From contig JACQKU010000021.1 in NCBI GenBank assembly GCA_016204335.1, forward strand, positions 1 through 55,524: a stretch of DNA of 55,524 nt, written 5' to 3'. Position numbers and translations under genes: made by a program. Below the pieces are notes generated by a model. That model was not told the origin of the DNA, did not search any database, and saw only the letters and a program-made list of their open reading frames with translations. The stretch comes from Candidatus Liptonbacteria bacterium. GTDB lineage: Bacteria > Patescibacteriota > Minisyncoccia > UBA6257 > 2-01-FULL-56-20. Of the stretch, positions 12,882 to 44,067 are shown one piece after another (within the stretch, counting starts at the first letter, position 1; every line of letters begins with the position of its first letter).

Positions 12882-13301
12882 TTACAGCGGAAGAATATTT
12901 ATTTTTCCCGAGTCCTCGGTATCGGCGAGCAAAGTGCGCACTCGGAGTTCCGGATATTTCCCTTTCACAATTTCAGCGGCTTTCATTAAATGGTCGGAGT
13001 GTTTTTTTCTTTCTTCATCGCGAGATGAAAAAGCGTTTCTTCCTCCGTACGCTCCGCAGTCTGTGTGATTTTTTAAAATGAGGTCGGTGATGCCGTGTAG
13101 CCGCTTTGAGGTTTCAATCTGCTTCATAATAAATTCCCGCTCGGATTCATGTTCCGGAGCCGCGATGTTTTTCGCCGCGCCGGCAACCGAAACAATGTCG
13201 CAATCGTCCAAAAGATTGTTTTCTTCGAGATAGCGTTTCACCGTGCCGCCGAGCCGGAAATCCATGCAGTGAATCATGAGAGTTTTACATTGGTGCGTCA
13301 T
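12882..13301 (-). CDS. Small protein with beta-carbonic-anhydrase-like motifs (CxDxR ... HxxCG)
   Basis: IHCMDFRLGG and NHTDCGAYGG are spaced as the Zn-ligand motifs of beta-CA. 139 aa, native-like composition, no SD. Confidence 0.45.
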   Translation of the reverse strand: MTHQCKTLMIHCMDFRLGGTVKRYLEENNLLDDCDIVSVAGAAKNIAAPEHESEREFIMKQIETSKRLHGITDLILKNHTDCGAYGGRNAFSSRDEERKKHSDHLMKAAEIVKGKYPELRVRTLLADTEDSGKINILPL

Positions 13302-13446
13302 ATATTCACGAAGATAGTTAGTATTCTTACAAAGTTAAAGTTTTTAGGCAAGATGTCGTATGTATCAGTGTATTAAATTGGTTCGAGCCCCGGATGTTCT
13401 GGGGCTCGTTGGTGCTATGTGCTATGTAGAGGTTTGGGGGGGCAGG

Positions 13447-14016
13447 TCAATGAAGGGCGGTGTGCCGGTGGGTGACCCATTTCTCCGGAGGAACGAGATA
13501 GTTCCTCATCTTTGCTTCTCCGGTCAGCGGGCGGTAGTCCACGTGGAGGAGCGTGAGCACCTCCAGTTGCGGGTTGAACTCCACGAGGCGAGTGCGGGCG
13601 GTCACGAGGTCTCCGACGACTTCTTCCGGCTCCATGCCGGTATCCAGTGCCCATCCGCAAGGCAGATGAGCTCGGAGCTTGAAGTAGTTTATCCCAGTTA
13701 ACCTCGGCGCCTGAACGACATCCGAGAAAAACACCTCGTGAGCATTTGGCGAGTTTCGGTTTGACTTTGACTCCGGAACCAGCCGAGGAGCTCCTCCATG
13801 CCATCGGAACAGATGGCTTTGCGGGTCCTCGTGGGGCTCGTAGCCACGGAGACCGGCGAGATGTTTCATCCCTTCATCGACTCGCCGATAATCCCCGCAG
13901 CAGATATCGACGGCCGGCATCCGGTGTTTCAGATGCCGCGACTCGATATCTTCGAGCAACCCGTTTGCTATTCCGTCCCTGACGAATTCGAGTATCCTTG
14001 GCTCGTGAGCGGTCAC
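13447..14016 (-). CDS. G+C-rich hypothetical protein, divergent relative of the neighbour (CCGDYR ... HLPCGWA)
   Basis: GTG start preceded by aagggggcgtt. Hand count of line 13561-13620 gives 40/60 G+C. Motif pair resembles 12882-13301. Confidence 0.5.
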   Translation of the reverse strand: MTAHEPRILEFVRDGIANGLLEDIESRHLKHRMPAVDICCGDYRRVDEGMKHLAGLRGYEPHEDPQSHLFRWHGGAPRLVPESKSNRNSPNAHEVFFSDVVQAPRLTGINYFKLRAHLPCGWALDTGMEPEEVVGDLVTARTRLVEFNPQLEVLTLLHVDYRPLTGEAKMRNYLVPPEKWVTHRHTALH

Positions 14017-14053
14017 AACGCCCCCTTTCGCTGAAAATAATAGTGAATTGCGC

Positions 14054-16300
<2,247 letters not shown>

Positions 16301-21585: not shown

Positions 21586-21760
21586 GAAAAAAATATGAGG
21601 GGCGGCGCGAGATGTGAATCCTCGCGCCACCGCCTTGCTACCCCGCCGAAGCGGTACTCATCACGCCTGGGCGGGTACTCTTCTGTTGGCTAGATCTGTG
21701 CCTGCGCGAACTGGCGTGCCTTCATGCGTAGTCACCCCCTCCCACTCGGCGGATTTACTA
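21586..21760 (-). ncRNA. Candidate ~175-nt GC-rich small RNA, bounded by a promoter and a terminator, family unknown
   Basis: On the - strand: TTGACA-N16-TATAGT (21794-21767), then a GC-rich segment, then the hairpin ggcggtggcgcgag...ctcgcgccgcc followed by ctcatattttttt. No convincing ORF. Confidence 0.4.
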
Positions 21761-21766
21761 CCTATC

Positions 21767-21794
21767 ACTATAAACCCTTCCCGATTTATGTCAA
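21767..21794 (-). promoter_or_regulatory. Sigma70-like promoter TTGACA-N16-TATAGT
   Basis: + strand shows actata at 21767-72 and tgtcaa at 21789-94, with a 16-nt spacer. Confidence 0.4.
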
Positions 21795-21877
21795 AAAAAT
21801 TTATCCACAATATGATTTTCCACCAAGCAAGAACTTTTCTTTTATGGAAACTGGCGCAACTTCGCCGGGCTTGGTTT

Positions 21878-21907
21878 CCTGCCACTATGCCGCGGCATAG
21901 TGGCAGG
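21878..21907. repeat. REP-like 30-bp perfect palindrome, family member 2, plus a ~100-nt conserved flank
   Basis: cctgccactatgccgcggcatagtggcagg. Flank aggagcgttggagcgagcggcggcgaaacatttt parallels 22591-22640. Confidence 0.75.
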
Positions 21908-22128
21908 AGCGTTGGAGCGAGCGGCGGCGAAACATTTTCCTGTCTGCAGCCTGCCTGTCGGCAGACATGGCTGGCAGGCGCCGGCGAAATGTTATCGCGG
22001 TTCACGAAAGGAAAATGTCCGAGAGAAATTTATCCGCAAGACAACCGCTGAAATTCAAAAAAAGAGTAAACCCTCGCATCAAAAATGAAGTATTAAACCA
22101 AACGCCGCGAACGACTGAACATGGGATT

Positions 22129-22165
22129 AAAAAAACAACTTCCCGCCTAGAGCTTCCTAGGCGGG
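22129..22165 (-). terminator. Intrinsic terminator on the - strand
   Basis: Stem cccgcctag-agcttc-ctaggcggg (22142-65). On the - strand it is followed by aagttgttttttt (A-run 22129-35 on +). Confidence 0.5.
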
Positions 22166-22401
22166 GTGAAACGGATGGACATCTGGCCCATCCCACTTCT
22201 TACGGCGGTTCTTCTCTGCACGGCCTTACGGGCCGCACCCCTTTTCCCGAGGCGGCTGCATATCTCGCTTCGAAGGGTCTCGCGGAGGAAAGGATCGTAG
22301 ATGTCGTATCGATCCAGCGTCCGGTTAACGGCATCTGGAAACTTTACCCCGCCGCGATAGAGAACTGCCGCGTACTCGGTCATACTTCTGATGTCTGCCA
22401 A
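22147..22401 (-). CDS. Possible small G+C-rich ORF (84 aa), TTG start with a strong SD
   Basis: gagaggagggtcaagcgTTG: GGAGG lies 8 nt upstream. The ORF ends inside the terminator hairpin. No family recognised, so it could be non-coding. Confidence 0.3.
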   Translation of the reverse strand: MADIRSMTEYAAVLYRGGVKFPDAVNRTLDRYDIYDPFLRETLRSEICSRLGKRGAARKAVQRRTAVRSGMGQMSIRFTPPRKL

Positions 22402-22563
22402 CGCTTGACCCTCCTCTCGAGTTTTGACATCGCGCTACTAATTCCTTTCTAATATATTTTTCGGAAAAAGTCAAACTAATTTCCAAAACATAGATTTTCT
22501 TTCTTATCCAAAAGCGGAGATTTCTCATTTGAGAGAAGCTATCGGAGTCCCGACGGGTTTGGT

Positions 22564-22597
22564 CTCCTACCACTATGCCGTGGCATAGTGGTAGGAG
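22564..22597. repeat. REP-like palindrome, family member 3
   Basis: ctcctaccactatgccgtggcatagtggtaggag, 34 bp with one central mismatch. Confidence 0.75.
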
Positions 22598-22726
22598 CGT
22601 CGGAGCGAGTAGTAGCGAAAAATTTCCCTGCCTGCCCTGCCCGCCGGCAGGCAAGCGCGTCCCGATCGCAGGAATCGGGACGACACCGGTTCTATCAAAT
22701 GAGAAATTGTAGCCCGTAGCCCCAAG

Positions 22727-25388: not shown

Positions 25389-25814
25389 ATGCGAAATAAC
25401 GCGAAAATTACAAATCAAGACCTGCTTTATCCCGAATTAAGTTACGAGGCGACAGGAGCTATTTTTGAAGTTTGGAAAAAGCTCAGTCCTGCATTTAAAG
25501 AGAGCGCGTATCAAAAAGCGCTCGCGGAAGAATTCAAATCTCGAAACATTCCATTCGAAAGCCAAAAAGCAATCCCGATTTACTATAATGACAAAAAAGT
25601 TGGCAGTTATGTTCCGGATTTTTTGCTTGACGGCAAAATCCTCATCGAAATCAAACATCTTCCTCGTTTGACTTTTAAAGAAAACAAGCAAGTGTGGTAT
25701 TATTTGAAAGGTACGGAATACAAACTTTTGCTTTTGGTCAATTTTGGAGGGAACAATATTGAAATTAAAAGGCGTATCTATGACAAGGCGCGTATTCAGA
25801 AAAATTCAAAATAA
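25389..25814 (+). CDS. GxxExxY-family protein (PD-(D/E)XK fold)
   Basis: ESAYQKALAEEFKSRNIPFESQKAIPIYYNDKKVGSYVPDFLLDGKILIEIK matches the family pattern. Confidence 0.8.
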   Translation: MRNNAKITNQDLLYPELSYEATGAIFEVWKKLSPAFKESAYQKALAEEFKSRNIPFESQKAIPIYYNDKKVGSYVPDFLLDGKILIEIKHLPRLTFKENKQVWYYLKGTEYKLLLLVNFGGNNIEIKRRIYDKARIQKNSK

Positions 25815-34257: not shown

Positions 34258-34342
34258 CCCTCGAGAATTTTTTAATTGAGTATTAAAAGCGGAAAGCGGG
34301 AGCGGCAAGGTTCGAAGAACCCATACCGTCCCGCTTTTTGCT

Positions 34343-34894
34343 TCACTTGGCGTTCGCCTCCTTCCTGAGCTCCGCGAGGTTCGTACGGCGGAGCGCGGCA
34401 TTATAGATGTACTCGCTGCCGGCGAACGGATGTCGGATGTCGGCGACGAGCCCTTCGGGGCTCATCGTATACTTTCCGACCCACTGGCCGGAATGTACGA
34501 TGAGTTTGCCGTTTTCGAAGCGGGCTTCGACCCGCTCCGAGCGCGACTTGCCCCATTCGTGTCCCCAAATGTTCGGGATTCCGCCGATGCCGAACACCAC
34601 AGTCACGTCGTCGGGCGACGCGATTCGTTCGACGATAAGGACATGTCCTCGGGAATCACCCGTGAACCGATGTCCAACCCGGGCCTGCCATAGTCCGGCG
34701 AAGGCCGCCATGTCTGCGGGGATTTCTTGAGCAGGAGCCACTATGGCTACCTGCTCCGGCAGGAGAGCGTCAGAATCAGACACCGCAGAGATGCCGAGCA
34801 TCATCCCTTGGCCAGCGAGGTAGCCAGCGCAGTTGGCGCTCCCGACCAGAATCCCAAACAGCAAAGCCACCAAACCGACCACGTTCCTTTTCAT
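34343..34894 (-). CDS. G+C-rich secreted hypothetical protein with a strong SD
   Basis: Signal peptide MKRNVVGLVALLFGILVGSANCAG. ggaggaagcgATG upstream. Hand count of line 34561-34620 gives 38/60 G+C. Confidence 0.6.
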   Translation of the reverse strand: MKRNVVGLVALLFGILVGSANCAGYLAGQGMMLGISAVSDSDALLPEQVAIVAPAQEIPADMAAFAGLWQARVGHRFTGDSRGHVLIVERIASPDDVTVVFGIGGIPNIWGHEWGKSRSERVEARFENGKLIVHSGQWVGKYTMSPEGLVADIRHPFAGSEYIYNAALRRTNLAELRKEANAK

Positions 34895-35054
34895 CGCTTC
34901 CTCCGGTTGTAGGGGTTGGTCGAAGGTTAATCGCCAAATTTAATGGTACTTGGTATTTTCTGTAGTGTTGTTTATGGGAAAGTCCTAATTATGATATACC
35001 ATACTTTAAAAGTTTTGTTAAAGAAAATTTTCTTACCGGATTTATTACTCTCAA

Positions 35055-37566: not shown

Positions 37567-37683
37567 GTCGCCATATTCTAGCCGATTTTTGAGTAAAATT
37601 CAATGAAAATTTTGTTGATAAGCCGCATTTGATATTTTTCACGCCTGCGCTTTAATAAAATCAGCCATTTGAAATTTTTTGCC

Positions 37684-37738
37684 GGAACCCATCTCAAAAA
37701 TATTTTCCCGCCGCCAAGATGTTTTTGAGATGGGTTCC
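37684..37738. promoter_or_regulatory. Perfect 17-bp-stem hairpin upstream of the small ORF
   Basis: ggaacccatctcaaaaa (37684-700), a 21-nt loop, then tttttgagatgggttcc (37722-38). Confidence 0.5.
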
Positions 37739-37798
37739 ATAAAACGTTTCTCACAATCGACAAACCGGCATTTCAACTCCGCCGAATAGGAGGAAATC

Positions 37799-38047
37799 AT
37801 GGCCGAAAAAGCGGTTTTCACTTCAACCGTTACCGAGCGGAACGGGGAGTGCCATATCGACATCGACGAACTTGGTGTCGGAGTCAGCGCGCGCAGTCGC
37901 GATGTTGCCGTCTGGGCTATCACGGAATCAATCAAGAGATTCTGTGCCGAGCTCGTCAGTCGCGGTGAGAACGGTTCTATCGCCCAGACGCAAAGAACCC
38001 AACTCGCCCGCCGCGCGATTGAGAACGGGTTTTGTATCCGGCTATAA
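37799..38047 (+). CDS. Small G+C-rich hypothetical protein (82 aa), possibly of the HicB/UPF0150 fold
   Basis: aataggaggaaatcATG is a canonical SD. The sequence FTSTVTERNGECHIDIDELGVGVSARSRDVAVWAITESIKRF is only loosely antitoxin-like, so function is not established. Confidence 0.55.
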   Translation: MAEKAVFTSTVTERNGECHIDIDELGVGVSARSRDVAVWAITESIKRFCAELVSRGENGSIAQTQRTQLARRAIENGFCIRL

Positions 38048-38156
38048 AGCAACGGCCGTCGAATGCACGACTGAAGGGTCGCGGCAGTAGGCGGCTTTTT
38101 CAGTTTTAAAAGTTTTTTATGGCTTGTCGAATTGCTTGCAATGAGCAACAGTCGAA

Positions 38157-43562: not shown

Positions 43563-43634
43563 TTTTTGTTACACTTGCTTTTTATCTTTGTGTAAGGTAT
43601 TGTTTTTAGCAACTTGGTCGACAAGGAGGGCGTT

Positions 43635-43811
43635 ATGCTGATGTCGAATGGCAGTGAACGAGTTTTGGTTTGTTTCGGATTTGAGGAGTATGGGAGTCGC
43701 GAGGAGGCTCTCGAGAGGGCCAAGAGGATTAATCTCAGCGGGGATGACGAGAGAAGAATCTTCGTCGTCACCGAGGAGATTGCCTGGCCCCACTCCTCAC
43801 GCGCGGACTAG
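43635..43811 (+). CDS. Small G+C-rich hypothetical protein (58 aa) between fusA and tuf
   Basis: aaggagggcgttATG is a canonical SD. Followed by a 10-bp GC stem (ggggggcgcg...cgcgcccccc at 43843-74). Confidence 0.5.
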   Translation: MLMSNGSERVLVCFGFEEYGSREEALERAKRINLSGDDERRIFVVTEEIAWPHSSRAD

Positions 43812-43907
43812 AGGTTCGCGCCCAAGTTTTGAGTTAGGAGACGGGGGGCGCGCCGGGAACCGGTCGCGCCCCCCTCTCACAAATTCATCTCTGGGCAAGT
43901 CTGGGGA

Positions 43908-43935
43908 TTGACAATCAGAAACGTTCCGCTACAAT
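43908..43935 (+). promoter_or_regulatory. Sigma70-like promoter TTGACA-N16-TACAAT upstream of tuf
   Basis: ttgaca at 43908-13 and tacaat at 43930-35. Confidence 0.45.
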
Positions 43936-44067
43936 AAACAGCTGTTGATTATATTAACCAAAACAGGTCGAGAGTAATATCAGCTTTTAGGTATTAGCTG
44001 TTAGCTTATTAGGAAATAATCCGAATGGCGGCTAAAAGCTAAAACCTCAAAGCTAAAAGCTAAAAAT

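Follow-up and report, generated by a model that had tools for sequence, protein, structure and literature searches.

The contig JACQKU010000021.1 of a Candidatus Liptonbacteria bacterium (assembly GCA_016204335.1) was analysed over its whole length of 55,524 nucleotides (nt), which is referred to below as the window. The 55.5-kb contig has a G+C content of 48.1% and holds the str, S10 and spc ribosomal-protein clusters, the atp operon, valS and recG. The host is an ultra-small groundwater bacterium, and its nearest kin in a species-level genome collection were metagenome-assembled genomes of Paceibacteria/Parcubacteria from the candidate phyla radiation (CPR), where the top recG protein was 65% identical. 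Five open reading frames (ORFs) of the window, c34894, c37799, c43635, c14016 and c22401, are the subject of this work, since each of them is led by a strong Shine-Dalgarno (SD) motif. They are listed with their signals in Table 1. The statistics for the native genes were drawn from the window and from loci fetched from relatives, which are denoted by L and a number.

Table 1. The five SD-led ORFs and the signals around them, in window positions (aa, amino acids; GC1 and GC3, G+C fraction at first and third codon positions; energies are those of the SD duplex)
Feature	Position	Strand	Remarks
c34894	34343..34894	-	183-aa gene; 60.5% G+C, GC3 0.71
SD GGAGG of c34894	34900..34904	-	5 nt before ATG 34894; −9.5 kcal/mol
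Leader motif TTGGCGATTAAC of c34894	34926..34937	-	sole exact copy in the window; present in all four cassettes
Promoter-like block of c34894	34985..35030	-	TTTTCTTT(A/G)ACAAAACTTTTAAA..TAT; −35 box TTAACA, TTGACA in relatives
Intrinsic terminator of c34894	34281..34344	-	long hairpin with UUCG-type loop, then U-run
c37799	37799..38047	+	82-aa orphan gene; 56.2% G+C
SD AGGAGG of c37799	37788..37793	+	5 nt before ATG 37799; −10.2 kcal/mol
Promoter-like TTGATA-17-TTAATA of c37799	37629..37657	+	read from the sequence; no call by the consensus scan
c14016	13447..14016	-	189-aa protein; 58.4% G+C, GC1 0.68
SD-like AAGGGGG of c14016	14021..14027	-	4 nt before GTG 14016, 26 nt past the atpC stop; −11.0 kcal/mol
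c43635	43635..43811	+	58-aa candidate ORF in the enlarged fusA-tuf spacer; 54.8% G+C
SD AAGGAGGG of c43635	43623..43630	+	4 nt before ATG 43635; −11.7 kcal/mol
G+C-rich hairpin past c43635	43841..43876	+	without U-run
tuf promoter	43908-43935	+	TTGACA-16-TACAAT, 11/12 matches, near-consensus; 3' of the c43635 hairpin
c22401	22147..22401	-	84-aa candidate ORF downstream of tRNA-Glu; 57.6% G+C
SD GAGGAGGG of c22401	22409..22416	-	7 nt before TTG 22401; −12.5 kcal/mol
Terminator-like hairpin of c22401	22142..22165	-	overlaps the stop codon, then T-run

The start sites were scored by the best duplex with CACCUCCUUU over the positions −20 to −3. The first-pass annotation, which was made from the sequence alone, had claimed that the native genes are without SD motifs and that the five ORFs possess them, and both statements were borne out. 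The 54 native starts had a mean duplex energy of −1.5 kcal/mol and none of them reached −8 kcal/mol, whereas all five flagged ORFs showed the motif in the described place at −9.5 to −12.5 kcal/mol and with a spacing of 4-7 nt. Random 18-mers of the window gave a mean of −2.3 kcal/mol, with 1.5% at −9 kcal/mol or stronger. The native starts are weaker than these random sequences and therefore SD-like sequence is, if anything, avoided in the native genes. Within native coding sequence, where a depletion of SD-like words would hint at a functional anti-SD, GGAGG occurred at 0.79 of the expectation, and control words deviated equally or more. When alternative starts within the first 40 codons were allowed, three extra sites of −8 kcal/mol or stronger appeared, two of them internal (rpsG and rplX) and one in a pilin ORF. 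In this prepilin-type gene (window 25744-25761, plus strand) the alternative TTG at 25759, five codons in, stands behind GGAGG (−9.8 kcal/mol), a motif that shares bases with the first TTG of this ORF and seems to be there by coincidence. Many native ATG codons, for example at 1809, 17279, 48787 and 49689, follow directly behind short word-repeats like aaattcgtaattcgtagaga, which would leave no space for an SD motif.

The start regions and the composition of the five ORFs were also distinct. The start region of native genes is unstructured and rich in A and U, with 34% G+C upstream, 36% in the first 30 coding nt and a folding energy of −5.2 ± 3.2 kcal/mol over the positions −30 to +30; in the five ORFs the G+C content of this region is 43-60% and the folding energy −10.6 to −12.7 kcal/mol. 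The high G+C content that had been ascribed to the five genes was confirmed in its direction (55-61% against 49.3% in native coding sequence), whereas its magnitude had been overstated: the earlier value of 37% for native sequence was wrong. The GC3 was 0.63-0.71 in the five ORFs and 0.54 ± 0.07 in native genes. The native atpD (56% G+C, GC3 0.67) overlaps with the candidates, and patches of 150 nt with at least 60% G+C are frequent in native genes.

The codon usage, which had been named as a check, was found to be atypical. The five ORFs prefer GCC, CTC, ATC, ACC, AAG and GAG, and the native genes GCG, AAA and GAA. The fit of the five ORFs to the native synonymous usage was low (p = 0.001-0.026), whereas the GC3-rich native genes fitted best. 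A high GC3 as a mere mark of high expression was rejected, since atpD, tuf and fusA fit the native codons best and the five ORFs worst. The encoded proteins are poor in lysine (3.2% vs 8.0%) and rich in arginine (9.9% vs 5.9%). These results support that the five ORFs are a class apart from the native genes by start signal, codon choice and start-region structure. As a side observation in a small sample, the native genes mostly end with TAA (33/53), and the SD-led ORFs with TGA, TAA, TAG, TGA and TAG (1/5 TAA).

For c34894, c37799 and c14016 homologues were found at matching chromosomal positions in related Paceibacteria of the CPR. All 12 members of the three families had an SD of −8.6 kcal/mol or stronger, which was seen in none of 24 neighbouring starts (−6.9 to +2.8 kcal/mol), and all 12 were richer in G+C than their neighbours by 6-17 points. 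By this comparison the SD motif and the high G+C content are long-maintained traits of the three genes.

The five ORFs had originally been read as recent imports from an SD-using donor of higher G+C content. Such a transfer from outside the lineage would account for the atypical codon and amino acid usage, for the two sites that adjoin tRNA genes, and for c43635 and c22401, which have no relatives and the first of which lies in a fusA-tuf spacer that is short in the closest relatives. For c34894, c37799 and c14016, however, it is refuted, because their syntenic orthologues are likewise SD-led and G+C-rich. The taxonomy of the homologues, which could be checked for these three genes, led solely to related CPR contexts and nothing foreign-looking was found. 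Apart from the tRNA genes near two of the five sites nothing suggests integration: no integrase, attachment-type repeat or mobility gene was seen at any of the five sites, and none of the five ORFs had a match in Pfam, PHROG or NCBIfam. We therefore consider a recent import very improbable as an explanation of the five ORFs. An import in ancient times would still be compatible with the data for c34894, c37799 and c14016.

The c34894 gene probably encodes a secreted protein or a lipoprotein, as its N terminus has a hydrophobic segment and Cys22 is invariant. Its AlphaFold model was poor, with a predicted local distance difference test score (pLDDT) of 43. Two homologues with 72% identity were found, and the ratio of nonsynonymous to synonymous substitutions (dN/dS) was 0.21-0.28. 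One of them lies on the 5.8-kb contig L001, which is syntenic with the window: a convergent membrane-protein gene is 67% identical, the next gene 49%, and a fibre gene with GNVGIGT repeats follows. In L001 and L003 the homologues have a GC3 of 0.71-0.73, compared to about 0.5 in the neighbours, and they are led by AGGAGG or AGGAGA at an unchanged spacing. No homologue in phage records was matched by tblastn.

The framework of c34894 is kept as a whole, consisting of the promoter-like block, the leader, the SD, the signal-peptide start and the hairpin terminator. The GGAG core of the SD was invariant across four aligned cassettes of this type, and the leader around this core had diverged. The promoter-like block occurs as a single copy in the window and is kept in L001, in two copies, and in L003; it has an imperfect −10 box and was not called by the consensus scan. 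The terminator had a minimum free energy (MFE) of −34.4 kcal/mol (z −7.0), and 18 base pairs were kept in the four copies, three of them with compensatory changes. L001 also carries a second tandem unit that has the c34894 framework and a different coding part. In this second cassette (L001 867-1244) the signal-peptide frame (MKKAIGTVTLLAILV...) is convincing only if the A6 after the ATG were A5, which could come from a faulty assembly, from slippage or from the unit being a pseudogene.

The second gene, c37799, has an orthologue (P0006) in L084 that is 81% identical and likewise located upstream of and divergent from recG. The dN/dS was 0.18, and the synonymous divergence (dS) of 0.65 was near that of the adjacent recG segment (0.55). 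At the spacing of the c37799 SD, L084 carries AAGGAGGA, where AGGAGG is kept and the flanking bases differ. Also kept in L084 are the two hexamers TTGATA-17-TTAATA with their spacing and a 3' hairpin. A scan of viral contigs gave no relative of c37799. The ORF 37639-38148 on the opposite strand was rejected as the gene at this locus, since the conservation tracks the frame of c37799.

For c14016, an exhaustive HMMER search gave a family of 133 representatives of about 190 residues each, and a k-mer search gave the query alone. Across the 133 sequences C40 and C120 are invariant, D42 and H117 are conserved in at least 90%, and H68, G74, G75 and P119 are nearly invariant. An AlphaFold model built with 26 sequences reached a pLDDT of 94.7, and all top 50 Foldseek hits in the PDB were beta-carbonic anhydrases (beta-CA; best E 3e-4, template modelling (TM) score about 0.5). 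An alignment of the family to that of the neighbouring Pro_CA_2 gene by hhalign gave a probability of 92%. The protein is thus predicted to be enzyme-like and of the beta-CA fold, with C40, D42, H117 and C120 as the metal-site residues. Like the beta-CA and Pro_CA_2 proteins it has the Cys-x-Asp ... His-x-x-Cys pattern of the metal site together with the predicted fold, and it adjoins a Pro_CA_2 gene. Unlike curated beta-CA proteins, c14016 and ten relatives had no Pfam or NCBIfam match at threshold, Pro_CA and Pro_CA_2 included, and its TM scores are only about 0.5; an enzyme activity is putative. The atp operon (window 12882-14016, minus strand) ends with two remotely related beta-CA-like genes as direct neighbours, of which the Pro_CA_2 gene is native-looking, with 47% G+C and no SD, and c14016 is G+C-rich and SD-led.

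Relatives of c14016 with 33-39% identity occupy the same slot, with a short atpC, the gene itself (X) and Pro_CA_2, followed by tsaD, in L086, L087, L089 and L090. In L085 the contig holds only X and Pro_CA_2, again adjoining, and in L088 a relative is found elsewhere. These six relatives (L085-L090) exceed their neighbours by 6-17 points in G+C and are led by GGAGA, GGAGGAGGAG, GGAGG, GAGGAG, GGAGGTG and AAGGAGGT. The leaders are mutually unalignable and the chance of such an SD site is about 2% each; the retention of the SD can therefore not be neutral persistence. A further observation concerns the neighbouring epsilon subunit of the ATP synthase (window 14054-14296, minus strand; also in L086, L087 and L089), which has only 79-83 residues and ATP-synt_DE_N alone as its family on record; its helical domain at the C terminus seems to be absent in this lineage.

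By these comparisons c34894, c37799 and c14016 are real genes under selective constraint, while c43635 and c22401 are unproven as genes. They also show purifying selection on the SD of the three genes, as it persists where the leader has diverged or is unalignable. From this selection we infer that the SD is a working initiation signal in these organisms and very probably still functional in the three genes. We propose, with a probability of about 60%, that these three SD-led genes belong to a long-resident minority class of leadered, SD-type genes in an otherwise SD-free genome, and that the five did not arise by one event. c34894, c37799 and c14016 would have been in place since before the lineage split from the related Paceibacteria. 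The genome would then use two classes of initiation: the majority would start from A/U-rich, unstructured and SD-free regions, and the minority via the SD, which would recruit the small ribosomal subunit where a high G+C content and strong structure at the start prevent SD-independent initiation. c34894 and c37799 would be self-contained units with promoter-like blocks and hairpin terminators of their own, and c14016, which has no promoter of its own, would probably be transcribed as part of the atp operon, at its tail end.

Several findings, which are given in this and the next two paragraphs, weigh against this proposal. None of the RNA runs contained the locus. The dS of c34894 (0.75) is below that of its neighbours (1.1-2.3). 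The pairwise distances within the c14016 family are not correlated with those of the neighbouring genes (Spearman 0.17 and −0.26, not significant), in lineages that are about equally distant. A strict vertical descent of this family is thus no more than the parsimonious reading. In addition, GC3 is high at 33-39% protein identity and in lineages of 44-58% G+C, for which a role in initiation gives no explanation. Instead, SD-led and G+C-rich single-gene cassettes might circulate among the Paceibacteria by transformation, phage or hot-spot recombination and re-enter or be replaced at fixed sites, with the SD and the composition set by selection elsewhere, e.g. in lineages with an anti-SD. Besides the low dS of c34894, this fits with its self-contained units, two of which stand in tandem in L001 with a shared framework and different coding parts. 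It also fits with the c14016 family, whose rate of evolution exceeds that of the neighbouring genes (mean identity 39% vs 54% for Pro_CA_2 and 64% for atpC), and with the report that most gene transfer of Patescibacteria is between Patescibacteria (PMC12455944). The fusA-tuf spacer, which varies from 18 to 2751 nt across related genomes (L091-L170, L004, L010, L018) and often contains unrelated small SD-led ORFs, is a further point in favour, as this spacer is an insertion hot spot within a gene string that is among the best conserved in bacteria. However, the five sites lack the integrases, attachment-type repeats and mobility genes noted above, and the framework motifs of c34894 occur just once in the window. 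For c37799 and the adjacent recG the dS values match, which argues for co-descent, and the c14016 family stays in the slot between atpC and Pro_CA_2 in five lineages besides the window, with a deep, star-like divergence (for L085 only the Pro_CA_2 side is on the contig). Such circulating cassettes are an unlikely explanation.

The second group of findings concerns the 16S rRNA that would read the SD. In the relative L025, where recG is 54% identical, the 16S rRNA ends with GGAACAACUAAAUU instead of GGAUCACCUCCUUA and has no CCUCC. According to Tsurumaki et al. (2022, RNA 28:1041, PMC9297842), just 48% of the Parcubacteria have CCUCC. If the 16S rRNA of the host also lacks CCUCC, a simple pairing of SD and anti-SD cannot be the mechanism. 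The lineage could then have lost CCUCC while selection has kept GGAGG ahead of a dedicated class of G+C-rich genes, where the motif is read by something other than the 16S tail. Candidates would be a protein or RNA factor, a remodelled small subunit, or an SD-dependent apparatus of e.g. a partner cell, and the SD-led class would be a separately translated regulon. We regard such a reader as improbable. Four groundwater runs were aligned to the 16S end of L025 and gave the canonical GGATCACCTCCTT together with variant tails, a mixture that is not attributable to this genome; in run X3 the 16S-tail contigs with a depth of 6.1 and 7.07 are both compatible with the 5.3 of the window. A host tail of GGAUCACCUCCUU would support ordinary SD:anti-SD pairing and thus the two initiation classes, whereas a tail without CCUCC would favour another reader or the circulation of cassettes. 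In favour of the proposal, the SD energy at the start sites minus the local background was −3.1 to +1.9 kcal/mol among 51 related loci, so the clade is SD-poor overall, and it still holds scattered genes led by a perfect AAGGAGGT, including small ORFs in the fusA-tuf spacer. Separately, the 16S gene of L025 (17775-20523) was seen to be interrupted, ahead of its last 130 nt or so, by about 940 inserted nt that include a match to group II intron D1-D4, and it ends with GGAACAACTAAATT.

The last points against the proposal concern c43635 and c22401, whose support comes from the motif, the flanks and the composition. A collection of 15 billion proteins contained both as singletons. The 136 candidate starts in 11 kb of unassigned DNA should by chance include about two SD-like sites of their strength. 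The two may therefore not be genes at all, and be chance ORFs and motifs within non-coding G+C-rich insertions, for instance small-RNA units or the debris of repeats or hairpins. The expectation of about two such motifs (−9.5 kcal/mol or stronger) points in this direction, as does the absence of relatives in about 170 fetched loci searched by tblastn and, for c43635, in a metagenome scan. For c22401, the region at 21.3-22.8 kb contains repeats, palindromes and a separate promoter-terminator unit without a real ORF. On the other side, the two motifs are the strongest of the window (−12.5 and −11.7 kcal/mol) and ideally spaced, c22401 ends in a terminator-like hairpin, and the codon bias of both ORFs is like that of the three proven genes. 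Also on this side, neither region fits a known RNA family, as Rfam gave no match. A non-coding nature of the two is a serious possibility, to which we give somewhat less than even odds. A promoter-like sequence was also found upstream of c22401. The fusA-tuf spacer that contains c43635 (window 43563-44067) has 505 nt here, whereas its length is 112-248 nt in L091, L004, L010 and L100, the four closest relatives. The two ORFs are specific to the lineage and may be either younger members of the SD-led class or chance ORFs.

The loss of SD usage, and of the anti-SD in a part of the Parcubacteria, is already known. As far as our literature searches reached, a conserved SD-led minority in such genomes has been studied only in the Bacteroidia and there for a single autoregulated gene, and a published description of the SD-led, G+C-rich class of CPR genes was not found in the literature searched. 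In the Bacteroidia, exemplified by Flavobacterium johnsoniae, the ribosomes are blind to the SD since the anti-SD is sequestered by bS21, bS18 and bS6, and rpsU, the sole strongly SD-led gene, is translated by ribosomes that lack bS21 in an autoregulatory loop (PMC7797042, PMC9976891, PMC13000453). The genome analysed here resembles the Bacteroidia in the genome-wide lack of SD motifs, as judged from the window, in the A-rich or A/U-rich unstructured starts and in the tiny conserved set of strong SD genes. It differs in the nature of this set, which in contrast to rpsU is non-ribosomal and compositionally distinct, with a probable secreted protein, an 82-residue orphan and a predicted beta-CA-like enzyme.

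The Parcubacteria without an anti-SD belong to the same superphylum and the same class-level neighbourhood, and they share with the window the SD-free native genes and, in L025, a 16S rRNA without CCUCC. The work on these organisms (PMC9297842) reports the loss of the rRNA motif, and its passages on SD and anti-SD contain no conserved SD-led, G+C-rich minority. A likeness also exists to the genomic islets, phage morons and transferred genes of Patescibacteria (Gios et al. 2025, mSystems, PMC12455944), which are small, self-contained and atypical units between core genes. Unlike these, the genes described here lie outside any prophage, lack mobility genes nearby and have no phage homologues. 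Their orthologues keep synteny in relatives of deep divergence and show no drift to the host composition. Shine-Dalgarno, ribosome binding and codon usage are not mentioned in that study.

In the present case, three unrelated families have retained a canonical SD together with a composition that looks foreign, and they have done so at fixed sites in CPR lineages of deep divergence. For annotation this means that island finders based on composition would miscall these genes as recent transfers and that SD-free gene models would place their starts wrongly. The c14016 family offers a comparative test of whether SD retention tracks CCUCC in the 16S tail, and either outcome would inform about initiation in ultra-small bacteria.

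Two minor observations were made around c22401. On the minus strand of the window at 21588-21794, a near-consensus promoter (TTGACA-16-TATAGT, 11/12 matches) and an intrinsic terminator at 21631-21601 flank a unit of about 170 nt. Its sole ORF has 10 codons behind GGGAGGGGG, its MFE is −69 kcal/mol (z −2.1) and it had no Rfam match, and the unit is a candidate small RNA. Two copies of a repeat of about 108 nt are located at 21840-21947 and 22528-22635. They are 77% identical and each contains a near-perfect palindrome of 33 nt (CCTGCCACTATGCCGCGGCATAGTGGCAGG); one copy lies upstream of the candidate small RNA unit and the other upstream of c22401.

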